Assembly: GCA_040757775.1 (NCBI GenBank)
Contig: JBFLWQ010000001.1
Coordinates: 58,917-122,916 of the forward strand
From: Thermodesulfobacteriota bacterium
GTDB lineage: Bacteria; Desulfobacterota; UBA8473
DNA length: 64,000 nucleotides
Reading direction: 5' to 3'
In this document: one piece after another, positions 21,089 to 61,636 of the stretch
Layout of the letters: each line of letters starts with the position of its first letter
How positions within the stretch are numbered: the stretch's first letter is position 1
Notes under the pieces: model-generated
The model's database searches: none
The model's input: only the letters and a program-made list of their open reading frames with translations
Told to the model about the DNA's origin: nothing
Program-made: the position numbers and the translations under genes

Positions 21089-21122
21089 CCAAAGGACTTG
21101 TTGTCCTTTGGCTTTTCTGTTT
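21089..21122 (+). terminator. rho-independent terminator-like hairpin
   Basis: CCAAAGGAC-ttgtt-GTCCTTTGG (perfect 9-bp stem) followed by CTTTTCTGTTT. The track's TTG start for the portal (21108) lies inside this hairpin. Confidence 0.45.
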
Positions 21123-21137
21123 GAAAGGTACTCAGGC

Positions 21138-24100
21138 ATGTGGTTGATAGATAGAATTACTGATCTTCTGACGAAGGCCAAGTACGATCCGTCCGGAGTT
21201 GATGGTCCTGGAACTACGAGAACTGGTAATGAGCAGAACGGATGGTATTATAATCTGATAAAGCTCGAGGAGACACGAAAGGCACGATACAAAGATTATG
21301 ACACGATGGATGATGAGTTCCCGGAAATATCCTGTGTTACAGGAGACACAATAGTTCACTGTTTAGATGGAGATTTTACGATTAAGGAATTGACAGAGAA
21401 CAAGAAAGATGAAATGTTCTTGGTTTACAGTTGCGATGGGAATAGAATAGTTTTTGATGAAGCGTATGCTCCACGACTCTCAGGTAGAAAAGTAAAAGTT
21501 ATTCGCGTAAGGTACAGAAGCAACAACCGATGGACCCATGAACTACGAGTTACTGGCGACCATAAATTTATGATGAGGGACGGTAGCATGAAAATGGCTG
21601 GAAAGTTAAGGTCAGGAGATAGCCTAATGCCGTTCAACGCTCAGTATGTAAATGATAGGCGGGTCATTAAAGATTTGGATGGTAGGAAGGTCTATGCGTC
21701 CCATCTGGTATTTGAGCAATACGCCAATAGAGCAGTTGATCTTGGCAAAGTGATTCACCACATTGATGGGAACCGGAGAAACGACAATCCACTAAATTTG
21801 CATGAATTATCGCTTGAAGAACATTGCCGTAAGCATAGCATGGGGAATCAGCATACATTGGGAATGATATGGAACGATGATACTGAACGAGTGGAAAAGC
21901 ATAGAAAGCGGATGCTTGGGAATAAGCATAAAAAGGGGAAGGCCAATAGTATAGAAACACGAATGAAGATGAGGAAAGCTCATGCTGAAAGACGACTGCT
22001 AGGGCTAAAACGAAACAGAGAATATGGAAAGCCATGGAACAAGATACAAATTACGCCGGAAGATTTGGTAAATGCTGTTGAAAGAACGAATGATTATAGA
22101 GAAGCAAGCGAACTGTTAGGAATTTCAGTTCCTGTGTTTTTCAGGCGTGTGAAGGATTTTGGTTTAAGGGGAGCTGTTGATTATAATCATGTGGTAGTAG
22201 GTATCGAAGATGGAGGGTTTGAGGATGTTTATGATTTGACGACACGGCGTACTCATAAGTTTGCTGCGAATCACCTAATTATATCGAATTCGAGTATCGA
22301 TATATATTCAGACAATGCGACACAGTCGGTTGATGGAACGCATGAGTCGTTTTGGATAGAATCCGAAGACCAGAAAGTAAAGGATGTTCTGACCAGGATT
22401 AACGAGGAGACTGGACTGCAAGATTCGATTTGGTCTATTGGGCGAAATCTGGTTAAGTATGGAGATGATTTTGAGGAAATAGTATTAAACTCAAGTATGT
22501 TCGTAGTAGATATAAAAGGATTGCCCTGTGAGCAGATGTACAGGAATGAGGATGAATACGGCAGGTTGCTAGAGGATGGTGCGTTCACGCAGAGAGACGT
22601 AAGCACAAACAAGGAGCTTGCAGAGTTTAAGAGCTGGCAGATCGTCCATTTCAGAAATGTGGTGAAGAGAGGGACGAAATACGGGAGGAGTTTACTGTAT
22701 CCTGCAAGAAAGGTATTCAAACAGTTACAGATGATGGAAGACGGTATGGTGATTGCGAGGCTGACCAGGAGCAACATGAGGTACAAGTGGAAAATCGATG
22801 TCGGCAATATGTCTGCAAATGAGGCACGTACATTCCTGAGAGATGTCAAGATGGAGCTCAGAAAGAAGCGCGTTATTGACCCTGCTACGGGCAAGTTTAA
22901 ACTGACCGATAATCCATTAAAAGATGAGGAAGATTTTTTTGTGGCTGTAAGGGATGGATCTCCGGCTGACGTTGATGCCATACAAGGTTCTGCAACGCTT
23001 GGTACTATTGGTGATGTAGAGTATTTTCAGAATAAGCTGTTTTCGATGCTGAAGGTACCGAAGGCGTATCTTGGATTGGAGAGAGATGTGAATGCTAAAT
23101 GTTTGGCTGGCGATACCCCGATATGTCTTGCAAATGGGAAAGATATGCCGATTCGTGAATTAGTAAAGCTTTATAGTAATGGGCAAAGGTTTTACGTGTA
23201 TTCATGCCGTAGAGATGGTGAGATAGTAATAGCAGAAGCACATTCCCCAAGGATAACAAGAAGAAATGCCGAAATGGTAAAAGTGACGCTCGATAGTGGG
23301 GTGAGCTTCAGGTGTACACCTGACCATCCGATAATGTTGCGCTCAGGTTCTTTTTGTCAGGCGAAAGATATTAAGAATGGCACAAGCATTATGCCTTTGT
23401 ATAGAAAGATCTCCGAGAAACCTGAGAATAGTATTAGCGGATACGAGTTACATAGAAATCCACGAACGGGCCAATGGAGATATACGCATAGGCTTGTTGG
23501 AAGACATCTTCCCAGGCCGATCGGTGAAAAGCGTTGGGTCATGCACCATGTTGATTTTGATAAGAGAAATAACTCGCCAGACAACCTTGTTCTCATGACG
23601 TGGGACGATCATGTAAAGCTACACATGGCTTTTGTAGCGTTGTTGCATACCGAAGAAGTTAAGAAGCGTAGCAGAGAGGGCGTTTTGAAATCTGCAAAAT
23701 TCAAAAAAAGACTGTTGAGCATGAATAGCAGCCTTTGGAAGAGAGCGAAGTCTAGCAAGACATTGAGACGATTGTATGCTGAAGGCGTTATGAATGTAAA
23801 GGGTGTCCTAAATCCAAGATACAGAAAGGATGTCACGGTTGAAAGTATAGCGAATGCAGCTCGAGAAGCAAAATGTTCATCTGCAAAAGAGATACAAGAA
23901 AAAACTGGAATTAATTATTCGTTGTTAAGAAGACGACTTGACAAGTTGGGACTAAGTTATCAAGAGTTTGCAGATAAAGTTTTGGAAGCGGGGTATAGAA
24001 AAACTGGATGGCATCGCCCTGACTTAAGTCTTGAAAAAATAGGTGAAGCCATCGCTTCCTTCGCAACAGTAAAAGAGGCAGCAGAAAAATTAGGTGTTAA

Positions 24101-24752
24101 CCGGCCTGACCTTTACCAGATATGTAAAAGAAGAGGGACGACTGTTCAGGAATTGCGGGCATCCAACCATAAAGTAGTGAGCGTTGAACCCGACGGCGTG
24201 GATGCCGAAACGTACGACTTAACTGTAGATAACTATCATACGTTTGCAATAGGGTGTGGTATCTTTGTTCATAATAGCACCCTGACCGTACAGGATGTAC
24301 AATTCGCAAGGACTGTCCGTAGGTATCAGAAGATATTAACGAATCAGATAAGATCGATATACAATCTAGGGCTAATCTTGCAATCATTGGATCTTGCGAA
24401 GTCTCCGTATTATGTTTTCTTTCCACCTATAAATACTGTTGATGAGCTTGCTAGGTGGCAAACCGAAAAGGTAAAGGCTGAGATAGCAAAGATTTACGGG
24501 ATTGATATTAACTGCGTGTCTGAGGAATTTATTCTGTCCTATTATCTTGGACTGACTGACAATGAGATTAAGGATGTTTCAGGACAGACGAAACCGGTAC
24601 GGCAGGGCAAGGAGCAGCAGGTAGTAGAAACGATCACGACTTCCAACATCGAACCGCATGAGCTACTAGAGCTTGGAAATCTACTGGAAGCTCTGAGAGA
24701 CCTTGTTGAAATTGAACTGGAGAAGAAGGAACAAGAACGATGGGAGCATTAG
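21138..24752 (+). CDS. portal protein interrupted by two HNH-type inteins
   Basis: First ATG after the hairpin. Removing the two inteins leaves an extein of about 500 aa, typical for a portal, in the position after the terminase. Confidence 0.55.
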   Translation: MWLIDRITDLLTKAKYDPSGVDGPGTTRTGNEQNGWYYNLIKLEETRKARYKDYDTMDDEFPEISCVTGDTIVHCLDGDFTIKELTENKKDEMFLVYSCDGNRIVFDEAYAPRLSGRKVKVIRVRYRSNNRWTHELRVTGDHKFMMRDGSMKMAGKLRSGDSLMPFNAQYVNDRRVIKDLDGRKVYASHLVFEQYANRAVDLGKVIHHIDGNRRNDNPLNLHELSLEEHCRKHSMGNQHTLGMIWNDDTERVEKHRKRMLGNKHKKGKANSIETRMKMRKAHAERRLLGLKRNREYGKPWNKIQITPEDLVNAVERTNDYREASELLGISVPVFFRRVKDFGLRGAVDYNHVVVGIEDGGFEDVYDLTTRRTHKFAANHLIISNSSIDIYSDNATQSVDGTHESFWIESEDQKVKDVLTRINEETGLQDSIWSIGRNLVKYGDDFEEIVLNSSMFVVDIKGLPCEQMYRNEDEYGRLLEDGAFTQRDVSTNKELAEFKSWQIVHFRNVVKRGTKYGRSLLYPARKVFKQLQMMEDGMVIARLTRSNMRYKWKIDVGNMSANEARTFLRDVKMELRKKRVIDPATGKFKLTDNPLKDEEDFFVAVRDGSPADVDAIQGSATLGTIGDVEYFQNKLFSMLKVPKAYLGLERDVNAKCLAGDTPICLANGKDMPIRELVKLYSNGQRFYVYSCRRDGEIVIAEAHSPRITRRNAEMVKVTLDSGVSFRCTPDHPIMLRSGSFCQAKDIKNGTSIMPLYRKISEKPENSISGYELHRNPRTGQWRYTHRLVGRHLPRPIGEKRWVMHHVDFDKRNNSPDNLVLMTWDDHVKLHMAFVALLHTEEVKKRSREGVLKSAKFKKRLLSMNSSLWKRAKSSKTLRRLYAEGVMNVKGVLNPRYRKDVTVESIANAAREAKCSSAKEIQEKTGINYSLLRRRLDKLGLSYQEFADKVLEAGYRKTGWHRPDLSLEKIGEAIASFATVKEAAEKLGVNRPDLYQICKRRGTTVQELRASNHKVVSVEPDGVDAETYDLTVDNYHTFAIGCGIFVHNSTLTVQDVQFARTVRRYQKILTNQIRSIYNLGLILQSLDLAKSPYYVFFPPINTVDELARWQTEKVKAEIAKIYGIDINCVSEEFILSYYLGLTDNEIKDVSGQTKPVRQGKEQQVVETITTSNIEPHELLELGNLLEALRDLVEIELEKKEQERWEH
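21333..22289 (+). mobile_element. intein 1 (319 aa) with HNH homing-endonuclease domain
   Basis: Begins ...PEIS|CVTGDTIVHCLDG (block A); block B TGDHKF; HNH core HHIDGNRRNDNPLNLHEL...EEHCRKH; ends VYDLT...THKFAANHLIISN|S (blocks F/G, Ser+1). Confidence 0.5.
23100..24275 (+). mobile_element. intein 2 (392 aa) with HNH homing-endonuclease domain
   Basis: Begins ...NAK|CLAGDTPICLANG; HNH core HHVDFDKRNNSPDNLVLMTWDDHVKLH; ends TYDLTVDNYHTFAIGCGIFVHN|S (canonical HN + Ser+1). Confidence 0.6.
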
Positions 24753-47119: not shown

Positions 47120-47240
47120 AGATCAATACCATCAACTGTTTACCGATTCAACAATATCAATACTTCACCGTCCATAGTCACCGAATCAATAAAATCAAGC
47201 CTTTACCGATTCAATAATATCAAGTATTTACCGTCAAGAA
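47120..47240 (+). repeat. iteron-like direct repeat array (TCAAYAAYATCAA core, >=4 copies)
   Basis: TTTACCGATTCAACAATATCAA at 47139-47160 and TTTACCGATTCAATAATATCAA at 47202-47223 (21/22 identical), with degenerate copies at ~47121, ~47178 and another ~46987. Confidence 0.45.
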
Positions 47241-47277
47241 AAACGGCATAAGTACTTAAAATCATTGCATTTTTTTC

Positions 47278-49049: not shown

Positions 49050-49092
49050 TCATTGCAAACTGATTGCAGGATGATAGATGAAAGGAGACAAA

Positions 49093-50505
49093 ATGGCTAC
49101 AGGTGATAATTGGCTTGAGGTTTCAAGAAGTGGCCTCAGAGAGTTACAGGAAGGTAAGCCGAAGCACTTTATTGTCCGGGAACTTGTGCAGAACGCTTGG
49201 GATGAAAAGGTAACGTACTGCAAGCTGACCACAAGTTGGAATAAAGGTGTTGCTAAGATTGAGGTTGAAGATGATAGCCCGGAAGGATTCAGAGATTTAT
49301 CGGATGCCTTTACGTTGTTTTCCCATACATACAAGAGGTCTGATCCTGAGAAGCGTGGTAGGTTTAATCTTGGCGAGAAGGAAGTTCTAGCGATGTGTGA
49401 TTATGCCTTGATACGGACTACGAAAGGGACCCTAGTTTTTGATAATAACGGGAGGCATAGGTCTGGTCGAAAGCGGATAGCTGGTACGGTTATAATGGTA
49501 CATGTCAAGATGAAGAAGTTCGAGTACGATGATATGCTGAAGGCACTACGAAAGTACATGGTGCCTGATGGAATCAGGTTTAGTGTCAACGGAGAAGAGG
49601 TCTTGTATCGTCGACCGTTCAAGGTATTTGAGGCTACGCTTCCTACAGAATACGTAGTGAATGGTGTGTTTACAAGGACAAGAAGAAAGACTCGAATCCA
49701 TGTTATGCATCGTAACCCTGAAAGCGGTGCAATGTTGTATGAATTAGGAATCCCGGTCTGTGAGATTGAGTGTCTATACGACATTGATGTTCAGCAGAAG
49801 GTTCCGCTGTCAACCGACAGGAGTATGGTTCCCGAAAGCTATTTGTCAAACGTCTATGCGGAAGTGCTCAATGCGGTATACGAGGTTGTGCCTGAAGAGT
49901 GTGCATCTGAGCAATGGATTAGAGAGGCGATTGGGAATAGCAGAATAGGACGTGAGGCACTCAAGGATGTTATTGAAAAGAGATTTGGAGACAAGGTTGT
50001 AGTTGCCAACCAGTGGGATAGAACGTCTATTGATAGAGCTGTTTCGGAAGGATATAGAGTAATTAGGGGGCAGGATCTCTCAAAGGCTGAATGGACGAAT
50101 GTACATCAGTATGAACTGATTAAGTCATCGAGCGTTCTGTTCGGTACGAGGTTTGTAGGATTCACGGAAGTGGACCCCGATGATAACATGAGGAAGGTAG
50201 CCGAGCTTGCCCGAAAGATTGCGAAAGGATATCTTGGGGTGGATATTCTGGTTAAGTTTGCTCGATGGGAAGGGAATACAGGAGCAGAGTATGGCAATAA
50301 GGAGTTGTCGTTTAATGTTGCATGTCTTGGCGTGGGTTTTTTCAATCCACCACTGTCCGAAAAGGTAATAGATCTGATTGTTCACGAAATATGTCACGAG
50401 CGTGGTTTGCACACGCAGGCAAGTTATCATAATGCACTGACTGGGGTTTGTGGAATGCTGGTTATGATTGCTTTGAAGGAACCTGAATTCTTTGAAGTTG
50501 ATTAA
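49093..50505 (+). CDS. GHKL/HATPase-like ATP-binding domain protein with C-terminal HExxH motif
   Basis: ATG 49093 with RBS aaaggagac. N-terminus FIVRELVQNAWDE...IEVEDDSPEGF...GRFNLGEKEV matches a Bergerat-fold N-box/G1/G2 layout of the sacsin/HATPase_c_3 type; C-terminus LIVHEICHERGLH. Confidence 0.45.
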   Translation: MATGDNWLEVSRSGLRELQEGKPKHFIVRELVQNAWDEKVTYCKLTTSWNKGVAKIEVEDDSPEGFRDLSDAFTLFSHTYKRSDPEKRGRFNLGEKEVLAMCDYALIRTTKGTLVFDNNGRHRSGRKRIAGTVIMVHVKMKKFEYDDMLKALRKYMVPDGIRFSVNGEEVLYRRPFKVFEATLPTEYVVNGVFTRTRRKTRIHVMHRNPESGAMLYELGIPVCEIECLYDIDVQQKVPLSTDRSMVPESYLSNVYAEVLNAVYEVVPEECASEQWIREAIGNSRIGREALKDVIEKRFGDKVVVANQWDRTSIDRAVSEGYRVIRGQDLSKAEWTNVHQYELIKSSSVLFGTRFVGFTEVDPDDNMRKVAELARKIAKGYLGVDILVKFARWEGNTGAEYGNKELSFNVACLGVGFFNPPLSEKVIDLIVHEICHERGLHTQASYHNALTGVCGMLVMIALKEPEFFEVD

Positions 50506-51078: not shown

Positions 51079-51107
51079 TTGACAACTAAATTTTTTTCTG
51101 CTAGAAT
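51079..51107 (+). promoter_or_regulatory. sigma70-like promoter P2 (TTGACA-17-TAGAAT), near-identical module to P1
   Basis: TTGACA at 51079-51084, 17-nt spacer, TAGAAT at 51102-51107; leader GAATCATAAACCACAAATCATAAGG parallels the P1 leader. Confidence 0.55.
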
Positions 51108-51154
51108 GAATCATAAACCACAAATCATAAGGCAATGGAAGGAAGGTGAGCGAA

Positions 51155-51568
51155 ATGGCATTGGTTAAGCAAACTGGAACATTGGAAGAAGTGGTTGATA
51201 ATGCAAGGATTGATATTGAAGAACTGCGTGATGAAATGGAAAGTTGGCGGGACAATATATCCGGGACTGGACTGGAATCTACCGAGAAGTATGAAAGAGT
51301 CGACGATACTGCTGATACACTTGATAGAATTGTTGATGCCCTGAATGATATTACATGGATGGATATTAGGGAAAGTGAGGTTAAGTTTCAAGTTGATCAA
51401 AGGAAAAAGGCTCCACGATGGCTTAGACTACAGAATTCGGTATCTGCTCTTAATGCGGCATCTGAGGTTATTGACAATATTATTGAAAACCTTAACGATA
51501 TTAAAGAGAGTCTTGATACTGCAGTCTCCGAGGCAGATGGTGTTGATTTCCCCACAATGTACGGTTAG
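51155..51568 (+). CDS. hypothetical acidic protein
   Basis: ATG 51155 with RBS aggtga; 137 aa. Confidence 0.3.
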   Translation: MALVKQTGTLEEVVDNARIDIEELRDEMESWRDNISGTGLESTEKYERVDDTADTLDRIVDALNDITWMDIRESEVKFQVDQRKKAPRWLRLQNSVSALNAASEVIDNIIENLNDIKESLDTAVSEADGVDFPTMYG

Positions 51569-51579
51569 GAGGTGCTTGA

Positions 51580-51945
51580 ATGGCAATGGATAAGGAAATA
51601 TGTGCCGAGTGTGGCAAAAGTGTGGCTCCTGGTTCGGGAAGGTTTGTTAATAGGATATTTGTATCAGATAATTATGAATATCGAAAAGAGATGGGATATC
51701 CATTCCCTGATGGAGAGCATATCTGTGAGGAATGCGAAGATGAGGTCTGTTGTGAAAGCAATGAGATGGAGGGGAACAGTGTTCGGGATGTAATGAAGGA
51801 TAGCATTAGAGAGGTTCTGGCGCAAAACTACAATATTTCCACAGAAGAGGTTGATACCGACCTCGTTGCTCATTTGGCTGATGAGGCGTTTCGTGTCTGT
51901 GGTATCGGCGATAAAGAGCAGGACGAACTCTGGAAGAAGGAATAA
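51580..51945 (+). CDS. zinc-ribbon protein
   Basis: CAECGKS...CEECEDEVC; RBS aggagg. Confidence 0.35.
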   Translation: MAMDKEICAECGKSVAPGSGRFVNRIFVSDNYEYRKEMGYPFPDGEHICEECEDEVCCESNEMEGNSVRDVMKDSIREVLAQNYNISTEEVDTDLVAHLADEAFRVCGIGDKEQDELWKKE

Positions 51946-51954
51946 GGAGGAGTC

Positions 51955-52566
51955 ATGGGATGGTATATAGAAATTAGTGGTACCGTAACTGGCTTATCTG
52001 AAAAAGCATGGCTGTTTATTCAAGATAAAGTTGAGAACAGATTCGAGACAGTAGAGTGGACACCTGAAAATGGTGGCACACTTGAGGTTGATACATATGG
52101 AAAATGGGATATGTTAAACGATAAGGATTTCTTGAAGATGTTGGCATTCTCTCTATCTGAAGGTGGTTGGGGGGAGTTTACGTTGAGTGACGACGATGGA
52201 AAGAGCTGTGTGTTCATTGGAGCCCCTACGAAGGATGATCCGTATGGAAAGGTTGTTGTTGATTTTGTCAGGGAAGTGTGGCCTGAAAATCCATTCCGAA
52301 AAGGAAGGCTCTTCGCTTTCACGCTAGAAGAGAGGAATGGAGAGCAAGAATACAGCTATGACCATCTGGTGAGGGCTGGTAGCATTGAAGAGGCAATACA
52401 AAAGGCTGAAGACTACGCTAGTAGGTTCTATGGGGTTGAGGGTGATGATGAAGATGGAGGGTATTACTTCTTTGGTGGTTGCCTGTTTGTTAAGGTAAGG
52501 GATGTCCGGGAGATGAACGAGAGCGACTGGTGTCTTGAGATGTACCGTAAGTGCTCGATTGATTGA
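51955..52566 (+). CDS. hypothetical protein
   Basis: RBS aaggagga + ATG; 203 aa. Confidence 0.3.
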   Translation: MGWYIEISGTVTGLSEKAWLFIQDKVENRFETVEWTPENGGTLEVDTYGKWDMLNDKDFLKMLAFSLSEGGWGEFTLSDDDGKSCVFIGAPTKDDPYGKVVVDFVREVWPENPFRKGRLFAFTLEERNGEQEYSYDHLVRAGSIEEAIQKAEDYASRFYGVEGDDEDGGYYFFGGCLFVKVRDVREMNESDWCLEMYRKCSID

Positions 52567-52596
52567 GGGGAATGGCATAAGTAAAGGAGGGGTGTA

Positions 52597-53016
52597 ATGC
52601 CAAGGATGAAGAAAGTTGTAGAAGAAATCCTTACGAACCATGGGCTGATAGATAAGTTTAGAAAGGATGAGTTTTTCCATGCAAGAATTGAAAGTCCTGG
52701 GTTTATGAGACTTGTGATTGAAAGATTGGGTGGAGGACGGGTATCTGTTGCTCACTACTACGAGCAGAACGGTGACCTCATGGCGGACCCTGACATCGTG
52801 TTTGATATGATGGATCATGATTGGGTACCAGTGGAGTACACACAGCATAATCTTGGGATTTATCAAAGAGTTGTACATGATAAAGGTGGTCAGGAGTTTG
52901 TAGACATAAAATTGCAGAAAAGTATTGCAAGTTTTGCGAATGGTCTATGGGCAAAGAACTTGAAACATCAAGGCTTCGCTGATCCTAAGCAATCAGTAGT
53001 AGCGGAGAGGTTGTGA
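52597..53016 (+). CDS. hypothetical protein
   Basis: RBS aaggagggg + ATG; 139 aa. Confidence 0.3.
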   Translation: MPRMKKVVEEILTNHGLIDKFRKDEFFHARIESPGFMRLVIERLGGGRVSVAHYYEQNGDLMADPDIVFDMMDHDWVPVEYTQHNLGIYQRVVHDKGGQEFVDIKLQKSIASFANGLWAKNLKHQGFADPKQSVVAERL

Positions 53017-53020
53017 GATT

Positions 53021-55138
53021 ATGGGAATAGAAAAGATAAGAGAGGAAATGAGGAAAGACTTTGTTGAACGGTCTGAGCTTGTTGATGGATGCCTTGTTGC
53101 TGTGTTGGCAAAACAGCACTTATTGATGATAGGTCCTCCAGGAACGGCTAAGAGTTTGCTCTGCAATGATCTCTGTCTCAGGGTGGATGGTGCCGTGTAT
53201 TTCCAGTGGCTACTCACGAAGTTCAGTACACCGGAAGAGATATTTGGGCCGATTTCGCTAAGCCACCTGGAGAAGGATGAGTACAAAAGGATAACTGCAG
53301 GGAAGTTACCGGAAGCTCATATTGGGTTCTTGGACGAAGCTCTTGACTTGGATACTCCACTAGCAACGCAGGAAGGATGGAGCACGGTAGGACAGGTTAA
53401 AATAGGAGATACGATCTTCGGAGCAAATGGAAGTCTAGTCAATGTAATAGGCATGACGGAGATAGCAGCAAATAGAGACTGTTATAAAGTGACTTTACAG
53501 AATGGAGAGTCTATTGTAGCTGATGCTGGGCATAACTGGCTATGTCGAAGAGGTAGAGGTCATCATAGGGTTCCTTTCAAGGTTAGAACGACTTTGGAAA
53601 TGGCAAATGAACTTAAGAAGAACGGATTCTTGCAGCTTCCACTTCCTAAGCCTGTCCAGCTACCGGAGCAAGACTTACCAATAGACCCGTATGTTTTAGG
53701 GCTATGGTTGGGTAATGGTAATTCGTGGAACGGTGAAATTTTAATGCGGAGAGAGTGGGCCGATGCTGCTCTAGCAGAGATACGGAAGTCACTGCCAAAG
53801 GCAAGAATAGTTGAAAGGGCAAATTGTTCCAAACAGTTGAGAACTATTTCCGTGGGAGATACTGGCTTACGATCCAAATTGGGAGATGCAGGATTGCTGC
53901 TTTCCAGAAGTGTTTACAGGGGGAGTGGCAAGAGCGTCCCGTTGGTATATTTACGTAGCTCGCTTGGTCAGCGCTTGCGATTAGTACAGGGGTTAATGGA
54001 TACGGATGGATATATGCAAAAGGGAGGAACATGTACGTTTAGCAATACGAATGAGAACATCGTTGACGGCATAGTTGAACTGCTTAATAGCTTAGGAATC
54101 AGGTGTTCAAAAAGGCTAACCAACGATAAAAGGGTAGGAGCTAAAGGGCGGCATAAGAGATGTTGGAAGGTAAATTTTAGGGCAACGCCGGGTATGCCTC
54201 CGTTTCTGGCTAGGAAAGTTTATATTCCCCCTTTGAAACAGCGACGCCATATCAGAGTTGTGTCTGTCAAAAAGGTAAAGTCACGTCCGGTAAGATGTAT
54301 TGCGGTTGACTCAAAGGATCATCTGTTTTTGGCTGGCAGAGTGATGGTGGTTACGCATAACTGTTTCAAGGCAAACTCGGCCATCCTGAATAGCTTACTG
54401 AGCATCGTAAACGAGCGTGTTTACCACAACGACTCGAAGCCAATGCCTGTTCCACTGTTCTCGTTGTTTGGTGCTAGCAACGAGTTACCCCATGGAGAGG
54501 AGCTTGGAGCACTGTACGATAGGTTTCTGCTTCGGTATGAGGTTGGATACATAGGAGAGGATTCAGGCTTCAAGGAGATGCTGCTGTTGGAAGAAAGACC
54601 TACGAAGGAGATGATGAGCCTTCAGGAGTTGGAAAAACTACAGGCCGAGGTTGTGAAAGTTGAAATCCATGATGATTTGATTGAAATGGTTATCAAGCTA
54701 CGTGGTGAATTGAAGAAGGAAGGTATCATCGTATCCGATCGTAGGTGGAAGCATAGCCTGACATGTCTTCAGGCGTTTGCACTGTTGAATGGGCGTAGCA
54801 AGGTTGTTGAAGAGGACCTTGAAATTCTACATCACATTCTGTGGTCGTACCCTGAACAGAAAAAGGTTGTAACCAGGATTGTTAACTCGATTGCAAATCC
54901 GTTGAACCAGAGAGCAATGGAAATATTGGACCAGGCTACCGAAATCTACAACGATGCAGTGGTTAATGGCACAACAGAGCTTGGGATCGAGGCAAATGCA
55001 AAACTGAAGAAACTAAGAGCTGAGATCGATAGTCTGATTAAGAACGCAACTGGTGGTATGACAAAGGCTGAAGAAGTACGAGAGAAGGTGAAGGAGTTCA
55101 ACAAGGTCATAGTCCAGAAGTGCCTCGGTCTCGAATAG
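53021..55138 (+). CDS. MoxR-type AAA+ ATPase interrupted by an intein
   Basis: Walker A MIGPPGTAKSLL; Walker B HIGFLDE, then a 341-aa insertion, then CFKANSAILNSLLSIVNER (MoxR sensor region). The extein is about 364 aa. Confidence 0.6.
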   Translation: MGIEKIREEMRKDFVERSELVDGCLVAVLAKQHLLMIGPPGTAKSLLCNDLCLRVDGAVYFQWLLTKFSTPEEIFGPISLSHLEKDEYKRITAGKLPEAHIGFLDEALDLDTPLATQEGWSTVGQVKIGDTIFGANGSLVNVIGMTEIAANRDCYKVTLQNGESIVADAGHNWLCRRGRGHHRVPFKVRTTLEMANELKKNGFLQLPLPKPVQLPEQDLPIDPYVLGLWLGNGNSWNGEILMRREWADAALAEIRKSLPKARIVERANCSKQLRTISVGDTGLRSKLGDAGLLLSRSVYRGSGKSVPLVYLRSSLGQRLRLVQGLMDTDGYMQKGGTCTFSNTNENIVDGIVELLNSLGIRCSKRLTNDKRVGAKGRHKRCWKVNFRATPGMPPFLARKVYIPPLKQRRHIRVVSVKKVKSRPVRCIAVDSKDHLFLAGRVMVVTHNCFKANSAILNSLLSIVNERVYHNDSKPMPVPLFSLFGASNELPHGEELGALYDRFLLRYEVGYIGEDSGFKEMLLLEERPTKEMMSLQELEKLQAEVVKVEIHDDLIEMVIKLRGELKKEGIIVSDRRWKHSLTCLQAFALLNGRSKVVEEDLEILHHILWSYPEQKKVVTRIVNSIANPLNQRAMEILDQATEIYNDAVVNGTTELGIEANAKLKKLRAEIDSLIKNATGGMTKAEEVREKVKEFNKVIVQKCLGLE
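53339..54361 (+). mobile_element. intein (341 aa) with LAGLIDADG homing-endonuclease motifs, Ala at position 1
   Basis: Starts FLDE|ALDLDTPLAT (block-A-like with Ala1); LAGLIDADG-like YVLGLWLGNGN and RLVQGLMDTDGYM; ends VMVVTHN|C (HN + Cys+1), inserted at Walker B. Confidence 0.55.
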
Positions 55139-55169
55139 AAAAAAAGAGGCTGTAGGTTTGTTGGAGAAG

Positions 55170-56672
55170 ATGATGGATAAAAATAATGGAGAGTTTGTAA
55201 TCAGAAATGATGCTTACGATAGGCTGTCCTTTGGTTCGATTAAGGAAGAGTCGAAAGAGTTGAAACGGCTTGAAGAGGATGGTAGTGCGTTCTTTTCGAC
55301 GTTCAGCCCACTCATGCAGGATTTCTACTCTGCGCTGTACAAGATAACACCACGGATGTCTGAGGAACTGTTTCCCGCATACGAGCTGAATAGGGTGCTG
55401 CTTGAGGAAGCCATGGGAACGCAAGAGTTTAGGAACCTAAAAGAATTTACGAAGCTTGATGATTTTAATTCTGCTATGGGGGTGCTAAGCGTTGGAGGCA
55501 AGGTGTTGTCGCAACTTCCCGAAGATGTCACTGATGAAACAAATATGATGATGAAAGCTCAGAGGTTTCTTGAAGGTATGATGACAGAAGTTGATAGCTT
55601 GGATGACCTATCAAGTCAGGCTAAAGGCAAGAAAAAGCAGAAGTACCATGGAATGATTGAAAACTTGAATAAGCAGATTAATGAGGTAGAAGCCTTAGTA
55701 AGAAATCATGGAGAGAAAATTGAAAAGTTACTCGATGGCAAAAAGGACGATATTAGACGAATAATGAGAAAGGTGTGTCAGGAAGCTATGAATGACGTGC
55801 AGGAGACATCTGAGTTCCTGGACACATGGGGGTCTGAGCCGGGTAAGCCTTGCCTGTTACCTGTTGACCAGAAGCTCGAATTGGGCAGGGAGATTATGAG
55901 ATCGAATAAGCTGAAACAGATTGCGAAGATAGCTGGACGATTTCAGAGGATTGCTTTGCATAAGCAGGCTACGAAGACGAAGCATGGAGTTGATGAGATA
56001 GTTGAGCTTGAAATTGGGAATGATCTTGGAAGAATTGTTCCTTCTGAACTGGTAAGGCTTGCCCACCCTATTCTTAAGATGGACTTCATGAGGAAGTACC
56101 ACGAACGACAGCTCTTGCAGTACCGAATGGAAGGAGTTGAAAAGAAAGGAAGAGGTCCGATAGTCTTCTGTTGTGATAGCAGTGGTTCTATGGAAGGAGC
56201 GAATGAGATATGGAGCAAGGCTGTTATGCTAGGGCTTTTGACTATTGCTCGCAAGGAAAAACGTAATATGGCTGTTATCCATTTTGGAAACAAGGATCAG
56301 ATTAAGACGTTCGAGTTTGTTAATGGACAGACTGACCCACATATTGTTGTTGAAGCTGCATCGTGGTTTTTCGGTGGTGGTACTGATTTTGAAGCTCCGC
56401 TTCATAAATCGATGGACTTGATCAGTCAATCTGAATGGAACAAGGCTGATATCGTATTCTGTACTGATGGTGAATGTGGTGTTAGCGAAGAGTTTCTTGC
56501 CGAGTATCTGGAGATTAAGAAAAGCAAGGAGTTTAAGTGCTTCTCGATTTTGCTCAATGTCGGTATTAACCCGAATAGCGATTACACACTGAAGTTGTTC
56601 TCTGATGATGTTGCGACACTGACGGATTTGTCAAGGGATGGTGAAGCAATTGATCTGGCGTTCACAATATAA
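55170..56672 (+). CDS. von Willebrand factor A (VWA) domain protein, MoxR partner
   Basis: MIDAS motif IVFCCDSSGSMEG in the C-terminal third; directly downstream of the MoxR ATPase. Start ATG 55170/55173 (the track's TTG at 55158 rejected). Confidence 0.6.
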   Translation: MMDKNNGEFVIRNDAYDRLSFGSIKEESKELKRLEEDGSAFFSTFSPLMQDFYSALYKITPRMSEELFPAYELNRVLLEEAMGTQEFRNLKEFTKLDDFNSAMGVLSVGGKVLSQLPEDVTDETNMMMKAQRFLEGMMTEVDSLDDLSSQAKGKKKQKYHGMIENLNKQINEVEALVRNHGEKIEKLLDGKKDDIRRIMRKVCQEAMNDVQETSEFLDTWGSEPGKPCLLPVDQKLELGREIMRSNKLKQIAKIAGRFQRIALHKQATKTKHGVDEIVELEIGNDLGRIVPSELVRLAHPILKMDFMRKYHERQLLQYRMEGVEKKGRGPIVFCCDSSGSMEGANEIWSKAVMLGLLTIARKEKRNMAVIHFGNKDQIKTFEFVNGQTDPHIVVEAASWFFGGGTDFEAPLHKSMDLISQSEWNKADIVFCTDGECGVSEEFLAEYLEIKKSKEFKCFSILLNVGINPNSDYTLKLFSDDVATLTDLSRDGEAIDLAFTI

Positions 56673-56698
56673 TAAACCACAATAGAGGAGGTAACAAG

Positions 56699-57625
56699 AT
56701 GGAGAAAAGATTTGAGCTAGAAAAGGTAAAAGGGCAGTATCAAAATTTCCCAAAGATTGGTGACATAGTCTGGTGGTCGTTAAGTAACATAAAGGTTAGG
56801 AGAGATGATATTGAGAATATGTTCAGGCAGGTTGGCCTCGGGGAAAACTACTTGCCGGCGGTAATAACGAATGATTCCGCTTACAGGAAGGCAATCAAGT
56901 ACAATCGAAAAGTATCTGATCCGCAGCTTCTCAGGTTGATCTTGGACGATAGTGACATAATCGTCCACGGCATTGTCAACGAAAAGGCCGATATGGAAAA
57001 CATGAACCTCGACTATGCGCTTGAGGCAAGGGTGTCTCTGGACAAAGGAACTGGAGTATTCCACAGTACGACTGAGACAGATAAAACCAAGAAGATCCAT
57101 GAAGACTATGACTTTTACATGCTGTATTACACAACGGATGATGTCAGGAGTATAGTCGTCCGGGTGATAAGGAGCCTGAACCCAACAGTAATCCGGGAAG
57201 GCGGTGGTGTCTACTTTGTGCCTGTTACGTATGAGGATACCGTCAAGAAACTTGAGCAGTTGATCCCAATGATGTCGTGGTCTTCTGTCGTGTATTCGCT
57301 CCCTATTATTGACACGGAGAAGACAAGGAAGAACATCTTTGCGGTTTATACGACCCAAGTTGAGAAGGAGATAGAAAGAGTTGTAGCTGAACTTGAAGGG
57401 TTCGATAACCCCACTGTTGATGTATTGAAAAACAGGGTTGAGAAATTTAATGCTATTCGTTTAAAGGCGGAAATGTACGAGGATCTGATAAAGATGTCAG
57501 CAGATGGGATTAGGTCCAGAATAGATTCGGCTGTTGATGCTGTGACGAAAATAATGTTGGGAACAAAAGGCGATGCGGAGCAATGTAGTCTCAGTATTGG
57601 CAACGTTGCAGGAGGAGCACTATGA
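56699..57625 (+). CDS. hypothetical protein co-transcribed with MoxR–VWA
   Basis: RBS gaggaggt + ATG; 308 aa; no motif recognised. Confidence 0.35.
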   Translation: MEKRFELEKVKGQYQNFPKIGDIVWWSLSNIKVRRDDIENMFRQVGLGENYLPAVITNDSAYRKAIKYNRKVSDPQLLRLILDDSDIIVHGIVNEKADMENMNLDYALEARVSLDKGTGVFHSTTETDKTKKIHEDYDFYMLYYTTDDVRSIVVRVIRSLNPTVIREGGGVYFVPVTYEDTVKKLEQLIPMMSWSSVVYSLPIIDTEKTRKNIFAVYTTQVEKEIERVVAELEGFDNPTVDVLKNRVEKFNAIRLKAEMYEDLIKMSADGIRSRIDSAVDAVTKIMLGTKGDAEQCSLSIGNVAGGAL

Positions 57626-57795
57626 CACTAGCCGAGATGGGGGAAAAGATACTTGCTAGCGATCTGGATGATGAAACGAAAGCTGAGTTGCTTGAGGTGT
57701 TGTGTGAGTATTCACGAAGGGCAAAGGAAGAATGGCATGGGTATGACGATAATTGTACATGCAAGGCGTGTCAGGCTGAACAGACTGGACCATAG
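57622..57795 (+). CDS. hypothetical small protein (not in ORF track)
   Basis: RBS ggagga, ATGA-type coupling; 57 aa, C-terminal CTCKAC. Confidence 0.3.
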   Translation: MTLAEMGEKILASDLDDETKAELLEVLCEYSRRAKEEWHGYDDNCTCKACQAEQTGP

Positions 57796-57893
57796 GGTTT
57801 TCTTACCGATGAAAATTCCTGACTCTAAATGACAAAACAAAGGAAAAACAGGAGGGTAAACTCTTACCCCCTACCCTACCATTCCCCCAACTT

Positions 57894-57908: not shown

Positions 57909-57966
57909 GCTAAAATAATTTGACATTGGATAGAATGAAAATAAGTTAAGGAAAACGAGGTGATAG

Positions 57967-59043
57967 ATGAAAATTAAAATTGGAAGAAAGGAATTAAAAG
58001 GCAAATTGCCTATGCTTAAAAAGGTAGCTGGTAGTAAAGCATCGCTGTCTATCCTTACGCATAGTCTTCTTGAGGTTAAAGATGATGGCATATTCATTAT
58101 TGCGACAAACCTTGAAACAGGTATGTGCATAAAGTTAAGAAATGTTGAGGTGCATGAAAAAGGACAGGTAGTTTTAGATCATGCTATGTTATTGAAAATC
58201 GCTACAAACGTTAATAGTGAATATCTTGAAGTCGAAACAGGTGATGACTGTGCTCATGTTCATGCCGGGACATATAAGGCTAAGATGCCTATAAACTTTA
58301 CACCTGAGGACTTTCCGAAAATGCCTGATATGCCAGAAGATTGCATGAAACCTATACTGAAAAGTGAGTTTCTAGAGGCAGTCGGGAAGGTCATGCATGC
58401 ACTTCCTTCAGATGCATACTACGCTAATGTTAGGTTTAATGGTGTTTATGTTGGTAAGGATGTGGTTGCTATGGATGGTCATAGAATGGCAGTGGTTAGA
58501 AAGGATTTTGGTTTGGGAAATATTCTTGTTCCCAAAGACTTTATGGATAATCTCCAGTGGTTAGAAGACGAGGAAGGCGATGAGATAAAAGTTACAGTTA
58601 ATAAAGGTACGATAGTTTTTGAGTGTGGTGACATTATATTGTTTGGAAGATTGATAGAGGGGGAATACCCTGATTATGAAAGCATTGTCTCAGATGAAAC
58701 TACGAAAACCGTAGTTTTTGAGAGAAGAGAACTGGCAAGAACTATAAAAATGTTAAAGGCTGTAGGATCGTTCAGCAGGATCGTGATTGAGTTTGGAGAT
58801 GGTGATATGGGTAGCGTTAATATAAGGTCATTTGATAATTCTGGCGTAGGAACAAATGAAATCCCTGTCACATATATTGGCAATGAATCGTTGGCGATAG
58901 CGTTCAACGGCAAGTATCTTCTGGATATGCTTAATGTTGGAAATGGAAAGGAAGAGTTTGTTGTAAAGATGAGCGATAATAGGTCTGTTGTCATCGTTGA
59001 GGAAGAAGATGCAGTATTTTGCATAATGCCTATGTCTCTGTAA
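57967..59043 (+). CDS. dnaN: DNA polymerase III beta subunit (sliding clamp)
   Basis: 358 aa; N-terminus MKIKIGRKELKGKLPMLKKVAGSKASLSILTHSLLEV... parallels DnaN; three-domain length. Confidence 0.6.
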   Translation: MKIKIGRKELKGKLPMLKKVAGSKASLSILTHSLLEVKDDGIFIIATNLETGMCIKLRNVEVHEKGQVVLDHAMLLKIATNVNSEYLEVETGDDCAHVHAGTYKAKMPINFTPEDFPKMPDMPEDCMKPILKSEFLEAVGKVMHALPSDAYYANVRFNGVYVGKDVVAMDGHRMAVVRKDFGLGNILVPKDFMDNLQWLEDEEGDEIKVTVNKGTIVFECGDIILFGRLIEGEYPDYESIVSDETTKTVVFERRELARTIKMLKAVGSFSRIVIEFGDGDMGSVNIRSFDNSGVGTNEIPVTYIGNESLAIAFNGKYLLDMLNVGNGKEEFVVKMSDNRSVVIVEEEDAVFCIMPMSL

Positions 59044-59061
59044 GAATAATTGGAGAATAAA

Positions 59062-59496
59062 ATGGAGATTCAAATAAAAGAGGGAATGAAAATAACCAAA
59101 CCTCAAAAAGTAGCAAAAGTACTTCAATTGATTTTAAACGGAGAGAACGATTTAGATCAAGACAAGGAACACTTTTGGGTAGTAGGGCTCACTGCAGCTA
59201 GCTGCATTAAATATGTCGAATTGGTAACTCTTGGCATATTAAACCAAAGCGTAGTACATCCTCGGGAAATTTTTAGAATGGCGATCCTCAAAAGTGTTGT
59301 TGCACTAATTGTTGGACATAACCATCCATCAGGAAAAGTAGCTCCATCTGATACTGATAAACGTATAACAGAGGTGATAGCGTCTGCTGGTGATATAATT
59401 GGTATTAAGCTGGTAGATCACATAATAATTGGCAATAACACAAAAAGATATTACTCGTTTAAGGAGGATGGTTTTGAAGATAATAGGCAGACATAA
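59062..59496 (+). CDS. RadC-like JAB/MPN domain protein
   Basis: GHNHPSGKVAPSDTDKRIT is the JAB HxHPxG...PSxxD signature. ATG 59062 with RBS tggag (the track's TTG at 59050 rejected). Confidence 0.7.
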   Translation: MEIQIKEGMKITKPQKVAKVLQLILNGENDLDQDKEHFWVVGLTAASCIKYVELVTLGILNQSVVHPREIFRMAILKSVVALIVGHNHPSGKVAPSDTDKRITEVIASAGDIIGIKLVDHIIIGNNTKRYYSFKEDGFEDNRQT

Positions 59497-60061: not shown

Positions 60062-61636
60062 ATGATAAATGATACTTTTTATCCTACTCCAAGACCATTA
60101 ATAGAAAAGATGGTAGGCAAAATAACACGAAAAAGCGGATTAATGATCCTCGAACCTAGTGCCGGAAAAGGGGATATTGTTGAATATTTACAAAACAACT
60201 GGGATTATAGGGGTATTCAAATTGACGCTATAGAGATAGATGAGACCCTACGAGCTACATTGTGGGGGAAATATATTAATGTAGTTGATAGTGATTTTCT
60301 TAACTTTGTTGGGCTAGATAAATACGATGTAATAATAGCAAATCCTCCCTTTGATGAAGGGGATAAACATTTACTCAAAGCTATTGAGATAATGTATTGT
60401 GGGGAGATAATTTTTCTCTTGAATGCAGAAACCATTAAAAACCCATATACAAATACTAGAAAAGAACTTGTAAAGCAGTTAAATAAATTAGGGGCAGAGA
60501 TTGAATATATCCAAAATGGTTTTATGGACGCAGAGAAAAAAACCGGTGTTGAGGTAGCTTTGGTTTATATCAAGATAGTAAAGAGTGTTGAAGAAGATTT
60601 ATTTGAGGGAGCAAATGATAAAGCCAAGGATACGCAAGAAACGATAGAGACCCCTTATGAAATAGCAACGCTGAACAATATACAAAACATGGTGGATGAT
60701 TTCAACAGAGTTGTTTCCGTGGGAAGTGAAACCCTGATTAACTACTACAAAAACTACAAACACATATCGAAGTTCATAAAGTTAGCCAGCAAAGATGGAA
60801 AATGCCAGGAATACTATAATGATGAAACCTTAACTCAGATCATGCAAGACAAGCTAAATGTTTTTTTAAGAGAGGTAAGAAAGTCGTATTGGGAAGAGGT
60901 GTTAAATCTCGACGTAATTAAAAATAGACTGACCAGAGCAAAAAGAGATATTTTTTATCATCAGTTAAAGGCTCGGTCTTATATGGATTTTACAGAAAAC
61001 AATATTAGGACTTTTGTCCTCAATATAATTAATGGATTTGGGAAGACCCTCACAGAGGCAGTTGTCGAGCTATTTGACATGATGACAATAAAGCATTCAT
61101 GGGATAAGAATAAACTTTACGAAGAAAACATCCATTATTTTAATGGATGGCAAACCAATAAAGCCTTTTATGTAAATCAGAAAGTCATTTTGCCCTATTT
61201 CTATTTTTGGGACAATATATTCAATAAGTGGAGAATGGGCTATGATACAGAGCGAAAGTTAAGTGATATTGATGTGGTTATGAATTATTTTGATGGTATG
61301 AATAATCGTTATTTGTCAATAGCTCAAGCATTAAGAGGGGCTTTTGATAGGGGACAAACCAAGAAAGTGCTATCTACCTATTTTGAGATTACGGTCTATA
61401 AAAAGGGGACAATACATCTGGTTTTTAGGAATGAAGGAATGAGGCGTAGATTTAATATTACTGCTTGTAAAGGCAAACATTGGCTCCCTGCAGATTATGG
61501 GGTTAAGCCTTTTGAACAACTGCCGGCTCCTGAGCAAGAAATAGTAATGTCGTTTGAAGGGAAAGAAACTTATGATAAAAATGTTGGTGATTGTTTTTAT
61601 ATTCCTACGATAGAATCTAATCTGTTAACAATATAA
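60062..61636 (+). CDS. N6-adenine DNA methyltransferase
   Basis: Motif I LEPSAGKGDIV, motif IV IIANPPF; 524 aa (extra C-terminal region likely target recognition). Confidence 0.7.
   Translation: MINDTFYPTPRPLIEKMVGKITRKSGLMILEPSAGKGDIVEYLQNNWDYRGIQIDAIEIDETLRATLWGKYINVVDSDFLNFVGLDKYDVIIANPPFDEGDKHLLKAIEIMYCGEIIFLLNAETIKNPYTNTRKELVKQLNKLGAEIEYIQNGFMDAEKKTGVEVALVYIKIVKSVEEDLFEGANDKAKDTQETIETPYEIATLNNIQNMVDDFNRVVSVGSETLINYYKNYKHISKFIKLASKDGKCQEYYNDETLTQIMQDKLNVFLREVRKSYWEEVLNLDVIKNRLTRAKRDIFYHQLKARSYMDFTENNIRTFVLNIINGFGKTLTEAVVELFDMMTIKHSWDKNKLYEENIHYFNGWQTNKAFYVNQKVILPYFYFWDNIFNKWRMGYDTERKLSDIDVVMNYFDGMNNRYLSIAQALRGAFDRGQTKKVLSTYFEITVYKKGTIHLVFRNEGMRRRFNITACKGKHWLPADYGVKPFEQLPAPEQEIVMSFEGKETYDKNVGDCFYIPTIESNLLTI

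Follow-up and report, generated by a model that had tools for sequence, protein, structure and literature searches.

A MoxR ATPase, a VWA protein and a DUF6744 protein are encoded together in a prophage

We analysed a window of 64 kb from a Thermodesulfobacteriota bacterium (contig JBFLWQ010000001.1), by which we mean the whole stretch of DNA considered here. It contains a tailed prophage, with phage structural genes followed by a non-structural arm. Within this arm, the gene of a MoxR-class AAA+ ATPase is followed by genes for a protein with a VWA domain, a DUF6744 protein and a small acidic protein of 57 amino acids (aa). The four open reading frames (ORFs) run in the same direction, are spaced by 19, 26 and -4 nt and are each preceded by a Shine-Dalgarno sequence (Table 1). 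An original prediction, made from the letters of the DNA and a list of its ORFs, had described them as tightly packed and as part of a phage early region. The spacing bears out the former, and the location of the MoxR/VWA pair and its co-oriented partner in the non-structural (early/replication) arm agrees with the latter. The VWA gene, 19 nt 3' of the ATPase gene, probably starts with the TTG codon at 55158 that follows an AAGAGG sequence.

The product of the first ORF matches the Pfam family bpMoxR (PF20030) with 170.1 bits (cut-off 27; E 4e-50) in two stretches flanking an intein, which is described below. It also matches AAA_lid_8 with 71.9 bits (cut-off 22.8) and AAA_5 with 66.8 bits. Taken as the spliced sequence, it finds RavA as its best match in the PDB (E 7e-56) over the AAA+ module at aa 3-275. 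The predicted MoxR class is thus confirmed, as are the two motifs named for it, i.e., the Walker A motif GPPGTAKS at aa 38-45 and FKANSAILNSLLSIVNER at aa 449-466. Further along the C-extein come sensor 1 (GASNE), the arginine of DRF and the lid domain; the helical tail at the C-terminus closes with a conserved CLG.

The VWA protein consists of a helical, uncharacterised N-terminal part (aa 1 to ~330) and a VWA domain. It matches both VWA_2 (35.6 bits; cut-off 27) and VWA_CoxE (27.3 bits), in addition to phrog_24053 (E 2e-72), and it carries the predicted metal ion-dependent adhesion site (MIDAS). The latter is formed by D340, S342 and S344 of the sequence DSSGS (aa 340-344) together with T409 and D437, each of which is kept in at least 85% of 23 VWA homologues. 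On the NCBIfam models of RavA (PRK13531) and ViaA (PRK10997), the two proteins score 216.7 bits against a cut-off of 681 and 101.7 bits against a cut-off of 500, respectively. The matches cover profile positions 12-320 of 498 for the spliced ATPase and aa 242-438 of the VWA protein. We therefore consider the pair RavA/ViaA-like rather than RavA/ViaA, since its scores lie far below the orthologue cut-offs and the LARA region is unmatched. The idea that the N-terminal part of the VWA protein is a degenerate DUF2201 metallopeptidase was rejected: in hhalign comparisons only the VWA domain was homologous, the N-terminal domains of ViaA-like and DUF2201-type VWA partners being unrelated.

The two ORFs downstream had both been predicted to encode unknown partners. 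However, the 308-aa protein matches Pfam DUF6744 (PF20529) with 126.4 bits (cut-off 27; E 1.5e-36) over aa 15-282, and an identical protein is named 'DUF6744 family protein' at NCBI, where an entry identical to the ATPase exists as well. It is composed of a two-lobed α/β N-terminal domain (aa 1-205), a three-helix bundle (aa 207-290) and a disordered tail. A clamp-binding-like peptide in this tail, QCSLSI, was rejected as a candidate because it is not conserved in homologues. The family is large, with 4,627 cluster representatives (50% identity) at E ≤1e-3 and 2,451 at 1e-10 (HMMER), and we found no mention of it in the searchable literature. A search of BFVD with DUF6744 returned only uncharacterised viral proteins, among them one of Haloarcula vallismortis tailed virus 1.

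For the 57-aa ORF, whose start overlaps the stop of the DUF6744 gene (ATGA), the description as unknown stands. Profile and family scans gave no match, and none of the related loci contains a homologue. The view of both partners as members of one set thus holds for DUF6744 only. The 57-aa ORF is a lineage-specific add-on outside the conserved module.

Table 1 Features of the window, in order of position
Feature	Position	Strand	Remarks
Anthranilate synthase component I	4970-6409	-	host gene, left end
Portal gene	21108-24752	+	1214 aa, start of morphogenesis block
Protease gene	27154		phage structural block
Major head protein gene	28453		phage structural block
Tape measure gene	36798		phage structural block
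Putative promoter block P2	51050-51110	+	61 nt; TTGACA-17-TGcTAGAAT and conserved leader
Four genes between P2 and ATPase gene	51146-53016	+	140, 121, 203 and 139 aa; gaps 11, 9, 30 and 4 nt
DUF6908 protein	52597-53016	+	139 aa; DUF6908 E 1e-33; ends 4 nt before ATPase start codon
RavA-like MoxR AAA+ ATPase precursor	53021-55138	+	705 aa; 364 aa (41 kDa) predicted after splicing
N-extein	53021-53338	+	aa 1-106; aligned with intein-less phage homologues
Walker A	53132-53155		GPPGTAKS
Walker B	53324-53338		GFLDE, aa 102-106
Class 3 intein with embedded LAGLIDADG homing endonuclease	53339-54361	+	aa 107-447, 341 aa
Intein GHNW	53522-53539		key site
Intein LAGLIDADG motifs	53696-53722, 53981-54010		key sites
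Intein VRCIAVD	54290-54310		key site
Intein VVTHN	54347-54361		key site
C-extein	54362-55138	+	aa 448-705; begins with +1 Cys, then FKANSAILNSLLSIVNER
ViaA-like VWA partner	55158-56672	+	504 aa
MIDAS DSSGS	56175-56189		D340, S342, S344
DUF6744 protein	56699-57625	+	308 aa; conserved motif RxGGVYFVP (57194-57223)
57-aa acidic ORF	57622-57795	+	Cys-rich C-terminus (CTCKAC); GGAGGAG Shine-Dalgarno
DnaN-type sliding clamp	57967-59043	+	all three DNA_pol3_beta domains matched
RadC-like JAB domain gene	59050-59496		after dnaN
Methyltransferase with DUF4942 domain	60062-61636		524 aa; after dnaN

A class 3 intein interrupts the ATPase directly after Walker B

The first ORF is 705 aa long compared to the ~365 aa expected for a MoxR ATPase. 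The original prediction had taken it for a plain ATPase and had read through a class 3 intein with a LAGLIDADG endonuclease. This intein follows immediately after the Asp-Glu of Walker B and splits Walker B from the remaining AAA+ fold. Its junctions read ...FLDE/ALDLDT...VVTHN/CFKAN..., i.e., the insert lies between GFLDE and FKANS. The homologues of Moorella phage MTATph1 and Bacillus phage 0305phi8-36, which lack the intein, can be aligned through the junction and have Val or Ile instead of Cys448. The best PDB matches of the intein ends (blocks A/B and F/G) are the DnaB intein chains 6bs8, 6rix and 6riy (E ~1e-22). The middle matches PI-SceI in the PDB as well as Hom_end (29 bits; cut-off 21.1) and LAGLIDADG_3 (24.8 bits; cut-off 22.5).

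Class 3 inteins are defined by a non-nucleophilic residue 1 and by the WCT triplet, consisting of Trp B12, Cys F4 and Thr G5 (PMC2807308, Tori et al.). The DnaBi1 intein of M. smegmatis belongs to this class (PMC6195587). Here, residue 1 is the non-nucleophilic Ala107, and Ala is found at this position in 15 of 15 homologous inteins. The triplet is represented by W173, located two residues after the block B His (GH171-N-W173), C426 (VRC426IAVD) and T445 (VT445HN); all three align with the DnaB intein chains 6bs8/6rix and are invariant in the 15 homologues. Also in keeping with class 3, the insertion is in frame, intein-less alleles are known and the terminal residue is Asn (Asn447). In contrast to the Ser or Thr that usually occupies position +1 in class 3 inteins, Cys448 is found there, as is Cys in all 15 homologues. 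As one WCT intein with Cys+1 has been described, Bvi IcmO (PMC2807308), we regard this residue as an atypical variant within class 3 and not as grounds for exclusion.

At least 14 further bpMoxR proteins (705-767 aa, 36-57% identical) have this intein at the identical position after Walker B. Ala1, GHxW, Cys F4, T(H/S)N and Cys+1 are conserved throughout these 15 intein-bearing MoxR proteins. As judged from this conservation, the class 3/Cys+1 MoxR intein is a lineage and not a one-off. We inspected two of the loci with an intein-bearing homologue, and in both the ATPase gene adjoins a VWA gene and a DUF6744 gene. We did not find a recurrent class 3/Cys+1 intein at Walker B of the bpMoxR family in the searchable literature, and the papers found there to mention both inteins and MoxR describe no MoxR intein in their passages on MoxR.

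Enzymes of the PI-SceI type carry a catalytic Asp where motif 1 of this intein endonuclease has an Asn. Since motif 1 reads WLGNGN in 15 of 15 inteins, it represents a conserved variant rather than random decay, and motif 2 (GLMDTDG) keeps its acid (DTDG/DTEG). Due to the replacement of the catalytic Asp, however, endonuclease activity is uncertain.

Related inteins were also seen elsewhere. The same class 3 type (ALALxTPLPTPTGW...) follows Walker B (LFIDE/AL) in the RuvB proteins P0152 and P0160, a terminase GpA-like protein (P0205) carries a related intein and P0119 seemingly contains two. In the closest viral relative, IMGVR_UViG_3300033141_003168 (L013:2618-4846), a different intein is found in a MoxR gene of 742 aa. 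This intein interrupts the Walker A loop (GPPGTGK/C...SHN/S) and combines Cys1 and Ser+1 with a LAGLIDADG endonuclease. Thus, inteins have entered the same MoxR gene of related phages at two different catalytic motifs.

DUF6744 accompanies MoxR-VWA pairs on mobile elements

We retrieved related loci through DUF6744 itself, obtaining ~40 non-redundant ones. Wherever a DUF6744 gene had enough flanking DNA, a MoxR-class ATPase and a VWA protein were encoded nearby. The pair was missing only from loci in which the contig ends within 2 kb of DUF6744. Five metagenomic contigs or contigs of metagenome-assembled genomes (L003, L007, L009, L010 and L011) encode a bpMoxR ATPase, a VWA protein of 410-570 aa and DUF6744 in varying gene order, and the trio is likewise found at L042, L043 and L046-L050. 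A bpMoxR/ViaA-like pair stands beside DUF6744 in 16 of 27 IMG/VR loci. The remaining ones show a second variant, in which an AAA_5/AAA_3 ATPase is combined with a DUF2201 peptidase-VWA protein; this variant accounts for about one third of the DUF6744 loci. In the searchable literature, we did not find DUF6744 recognised as the partner that stays constant while the ATPase/VWA pair varies between two types.

The carriers include phages and plasmids. Moorella phage MTATph1 (L001) encodes the ATPase and the VWA protein as CDS0115 and CDS0114 and DUF6744 as CDS0119. In Bacillus phage 0305phi8-36, the DUF6744 homologue is ORF046. Large plasmids of Brevibacillus and Streptomyces (L040 and L041) bear the trio as well, and RefSeq calls its members 'AAA family ATPase / VWA domain-containing protein / DUF6744 family protein'. 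DUF6744 genes are also present on plasmids of Alicyclobacillus and Pseudanabaena, for which we looked at the DUF6744 gene only. On a 539-kb metagenomic contig (L010:1043-9077), ParE/ParD toxin-antitoxin and HNH genes split the trio, and all three genes are kept.

The association runs in one direction. Chromosomal bpMoxR-VWA pairs have a DUF2207 or radical SAM gene alongside and lack DUF6744. Hence, DUF6744 predicts the MoxR-VWA pair and not the reverse, and the test for reciprocity failed. Several other genes of the window were considered as parts of the module, namely those for DUF6908, the 140-, 121- and 203-aa proteins, the GHKL-like protein and RadC. All of them were rejected, as their profiles gave no hits in the related loci.

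Viral relatives of the ATPase are few: they occur in 25 of 50,697 phage records, several of which are host contigs. ATPases related to that of the window are also encoded by Sulfolobus monocaudaviruses. A megablast of 52597-57795 against the same 50,697 phage records gave no match, so that the known relatives are at the protein level only.

Replication and partition genes surround the trio

We surveyed 283 same-strand neighbours of the trio, taken within 4 kb at the ~40 loci, for Pfam domains. Helicase domains were frequent (Helicase_C 10, ResIII 6, DEAD 5, SNF2 3). DnaN domains occurred in ~6 loci, ParB_N was matched seven times and sigma-70 region 2 five times. Single or double matches were obtained for Toprim, DnaB, ribonucleotide reductase, uracil-DNA glycosylase, ligase, RuvB and PD-(D/E)XK. 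Families of portal, capsid, tail or terminase proteins were absent from both top-25 lists of the census. A dnaN gene lies directly 3' of DUF6744 in L010, L046, L047, L048 and L050, comes after the 57-aa ORF in the window and, as a DnaN-like gene, directly precedes the MoxR gene in L013.

The Brevibacillus plasmid pAZOBL1 (NZ_CP032411.1; L040, L054-L056) combines the trio with Rep, ParA and ParM. It also encodes a VirB4-like DUF87 protein, a type IV coupling protein, a replication-relaxation protein and Tad-like pilus genes, as well as SIR2 and type I-C Cas genes, and it has no annotated virion gene. PLSDB types this plasmid as 'non-mobilizable' despite its conjugation-type genes.

Prophage setting and promoter blocks

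In the window, the morphogenesis block extends from the portal gene (21.1 kb) to tail genes (~45 kb), and the non-structural arm starts at ~47 kb; the trio lies outside the block. Minus-strand genes at the left end, including 1171-2655, resemble host genes, and the prophage edge is probably near 6.5-7 kb. The portal gene apparently contains two more inteins with HNH endonucleases, at ~21333-22289 (aa 76-394; junctions FPEIS/CVTGD...LIISN/SS) and ~23100-24275 (aa 665-1056; junctions NAK/CLAGD...FVHN/ST). Together with the MoxR intein, this would amount to three inteins in one prophage. RadC-like and DUF4942-methyltransferase genes, as found after dnaN, are of types that mobile elements often carry in their early or establishment regions.

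Expression of the four genes from a conserved promoter block, P2, had been predicted. The 61-nt block exists, but it is located 1.9 kb upstream of the ATPase gene, with four tightly packed genes in between. Its -35 element TTGACA (51079-51084) and extended -10 element (TGcTAGAAT, ending at 51107) agree with the consensus at 11 of 12 positions, plus the TG extension. Over its 61 nt, P2 repeats P1 (47249-47309) with 70% identity. Besides the -35 and the extended -10, P1 (47249-47335) and P2 (51050-51135) have a transcribed leader in common, GAA(A)TCATAAAaCAtAAATCAcAAgG, which suggests a common regulatory site. Directly 5' of P1, at 47122-47247, two tandem 63-nt repeats (73% identical) contain ATCAATA / TTTACCGATTCAA sub-repeats and might function as operators or iteron-like sites. 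At 57931-57939, 5' of dnaN, the -10 recurs in part (TAGAATGAA), but no properly spaced -35 is present there.

Co-transcription of the cluster from P2 is plausible and would create a unit of at least eight genes. No intrinsic terminator was found on the plus strand inside the cluster or after the 57-aa ORF; a hairpin at 57851-57872 has no U-tract (z = -1.7). The neighbouring gene that had been called a GHKL-like ATPase (49078-50505) gave only sub-threshold matches (HATPase_c_3, E 1e-3) and, being upstream of P2, belongs to another unit. An Rfam search of 46-64 kb returned no match.

A proposed three-component remodelling module with a possible replication-side role

We propose, with a probability of roughly 55%, that this region encodes a three-component MoxR-type AAA+ remodelling module of mobile elements, in which DUF6744 is the client or adaptor and which acts on the side of replication. 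Chromosomal bpMoxR-VWA pairs carry other third genes, and the usual logic of MoxR systems couples a generic ATPase-VWA engine with a neighbouring gene that specifies the client. By this analogy, our best guess is that DUF6744 serves as a mobile-element-specific client or as an adaptor selecting the client. Judged by the census, the flanking DnaN genes and pAZOBL1, the module more likely functions in replication, partition or establishment than in virion assembly.

Mechanistically, the 705-aa precursor would be unable to adopt the AAA+ fold until spliced, because the intein puts 341 residues between Walker B and the helix and sensor 1 that follow it. Along the class 3 route, Cys426 of block F would attack the N-terminal junction, i.e., the Glu106-Ala107 bond, the acyl group would then move to Cys448 and Asn447 would cyclise. 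Splicing would thereby ligate the exteins (...GFLDE-CFKAN...) into the 364-aa ATPase. By analogy with RavA/ViaA, NorQ/NorD and CbbQ/CbbO, a hexamer of this ATPase may dock the VWA protein, whose MIDAS would grip an acidic residue of DUF6744 or of a client bound to it, and ATP hydrolysis would remodel the gripped client. E95 and D98 at the tip of a hairpin are candidates for a conserved acidic residue of this kind at a predicted VWA-DUF6744 interface. Redox-sensitive splicing has been demonstrated for the DnaBi1 intein of M. smegmatis (PMC6195587). By analogy, the catalytic Cys426 and the Cys at +1 could render splicing redox-sensitive here as well.

A more specific version of this proposal directs the machine at the replisome, with DUF6744 tethering the VWA protein and the ATPase to the sliding clamp or to a replication or partition factor and the intein acting as a redox switch. 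We regard it as a speculative extension with a slim chance of being correct. If true, a factor would be loaded, unloaded or hijacked for replication of the element, and the machine would be off under oxidative stress.

Several points weigh against the three-component module as proposed. The neighbours in the census came from crude ORF calling on the same strand, and the majority had no Pfam match. The DnaN cases are not independent, since several stem from one group of related Acidobacteriota elements. What links the trio is the co-localisation of its genes, and even adjacency is not absolute, because 8.5 kb separate ORF046 of 0305phi8-36 from gp63/gp66. The role of client or adaptor is argued by analogy, given that we found neither a solved structural relative nor a catalytic signature for DUF6744. 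The case for splicing competence is made by conserved residues, among which Cys+1 is unusual, and co-transcription from P2 is suggested by sequence features only.

Of the other explanations, we consider the one closest to the original prediction unlikely. Here, the module would remodel or dismantle a respiratory or defence complex of the host, with DUF6744 as the adaptor to the host target. RavA/ViaA relatives act on host respiratory complexes, according to PMC3893208 and PMC10585395. Furthermore, the early arm with RadC, the DUF4942 methyltransferase and DUF6908 holds gene types of establishment regions, and the carriers, i.e., phages, integrative elements and a conjugative plasmid, all face host defences. 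However, the genes that recur most strongly next to the trio are those for replication and partition rather than methylases or Ard-type genes, and we found no sequence or structural likeness to a known anti-defence protein. None of the four proteins has an effector domain in Pfam or NCBIfam or a match in PADLOC, which lists defence and not anti-defence proteins, so that the predicted counter-defence or host-complex remodelling gained no support. The converse idea, a defence or superinfection exclusion system of the element akin to the MoxR-vWA 'ternary' conflict systems with DUF6744 as sensor or effector, appears quite improbable to us. The best Pfam family, bpMoxR, was defined on MoxR-vWA-β-propeller conflict systems (PMC7159879), prophages and plasmids often bear defence cargo, and pAZOBL1 has SIR2 and type I-C CRISPR-Cas. 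Yet the module lacks VMAP, β-propeller and effector domains, DUF6744 shows no catalytic signature and PADLOC gave nothing. In addition, in large virulent-type phages such as 0305phi8-36 and MTATph1 the module resides inside the core replication/early clusters and not in cargo islands.

A chaperone for virion assembly, which would fold or assemble tail or head with DUF6744 as an assembly factor, has precedents: ATV p618/p892 act in tail development (Scheele 2011, as cited in PMC7159879), and PMC7824862 proposes an assembly role for jumbo-phage MoxR-vWA(peptidase) pairs. The DUF2201 variant of the DUF6744 loci is the one discussed in this jumbo-phage proposal, and Sulfolobus monocaudaviruses carry related ATPases. 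We nevertheless give this reading little credence. The module lies outside the morphogenesis block and 3' of a consensus early-type promoter, close to DnaN, RadC and the methyltransferase, virion families are absent from the frequent neighbours and pAZOBL1 has the trio with conjugation genes and no annotated virion gene. Scarcely credible, finally, is a chaperone inserting a metal cofactor into a metalloenzyme of the element such as ribonucleotide reductase, comparable to NorQ/D, CoxD/E or CobS/T. It would fit the annotation of gp66/gp63 of 0305phi8-36 as 'metalloprotein chaperonin' subunits (PMC2147016), the gene for the ribonucleotide reductase large subunit adjoining the DUF6744 gene of MTATph1 and the insertion of metal by NorQD (PMC13036017). 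However, there is no metalloenzyme gene near the module in the window, ribonucleotide reductase was met once among the 283 neighbours, and no metalloenzyme is a consistent partner across the loci.

Comparison with known systems

With RavA-ViaA, the module proposed here shares the best structure and NCBIfam matches of both ATPase and VWA protein, the order ATPase-then-VWA and an intact MIDAS. It differs by scores below the orthologue cut-offs, the unmatched LARA region, carriage on mobile elements, the third gene and the intein. The MoxR-vWA ternary systems (Kaur, Burroughs, Iyer & Aravind 2020, PMC7159879) likewise use bpMoxR and combine a core with a third specificity component. In contrast, DUF6744 replaces VMAP/β-propeller here, being the only family that the third gene matches, no effector is fused and the genes belong to the replication/early parts of phages and plasmids.

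Viral MoxR-VWA pairs have been documented before, and they are rare in sequenced phages. Such pairs were annotated in phages in 2007, in Bacillus phage 0305phi8-36 (PMC2147016), in 2011 and in 2021, the last for jumbo phages (PMC7824862). The statement that the genes are not a standard phage module was therefore too strong. The phage MoxR-VWA papers that we found do not point out the DUF6744 partner. The window's ATPase and VWA protein are ~45-46% and 35% identical to those of MTATph1 and 33% and 28% identical to those of 0305phi8-36. Both phages have DUF6744, as does the window, whereas their ATPases are without intein. The pairs of ATV and jumbo phages are proposed assembly chaperones, a role which the context in the window does not support.

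The intein agrees with known class 3 inteins, i.e., those of DnaB of mycobacteriophage Bethlehem, DnaBi1 (6bs8) and 6rix/6riy, in Ala1, the WCT triplet, the terminal His-Asn, the similarity of both splicing halves (E ~1e-22) and the choice of an ATPase catalytic motif as its target. It deviates from them in its MoxR host, its site after Walker B instead of in the P-loop, its Cys+1 instead of Ser/Thr and its full LAGLIDADG domain with the invariant WLGNGN in motif 1.

Significance

The intein corrects an annotation that at present reads just 'AAA family ATPase'. Furthermore, the class 3/Cys+1 lineage at Walker B of AAA+ proteins (MoxR and RuvB) should be useful for studies of intein mechanism. 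Clients are known for only a minority of the widespread MoxR-VWA pairs; DUF6744 is a consistent third partner that marks a branch specific to mobile elements. The resulting three-protein system is open to reconstitution, with 0305phi8-36, MTATph1 and pAZOBL1 as tractable carriers. If its client is a replication or establishment factor, the module would represent a new class of accessory function common to phages, integrative elements and conjugative plasmids.

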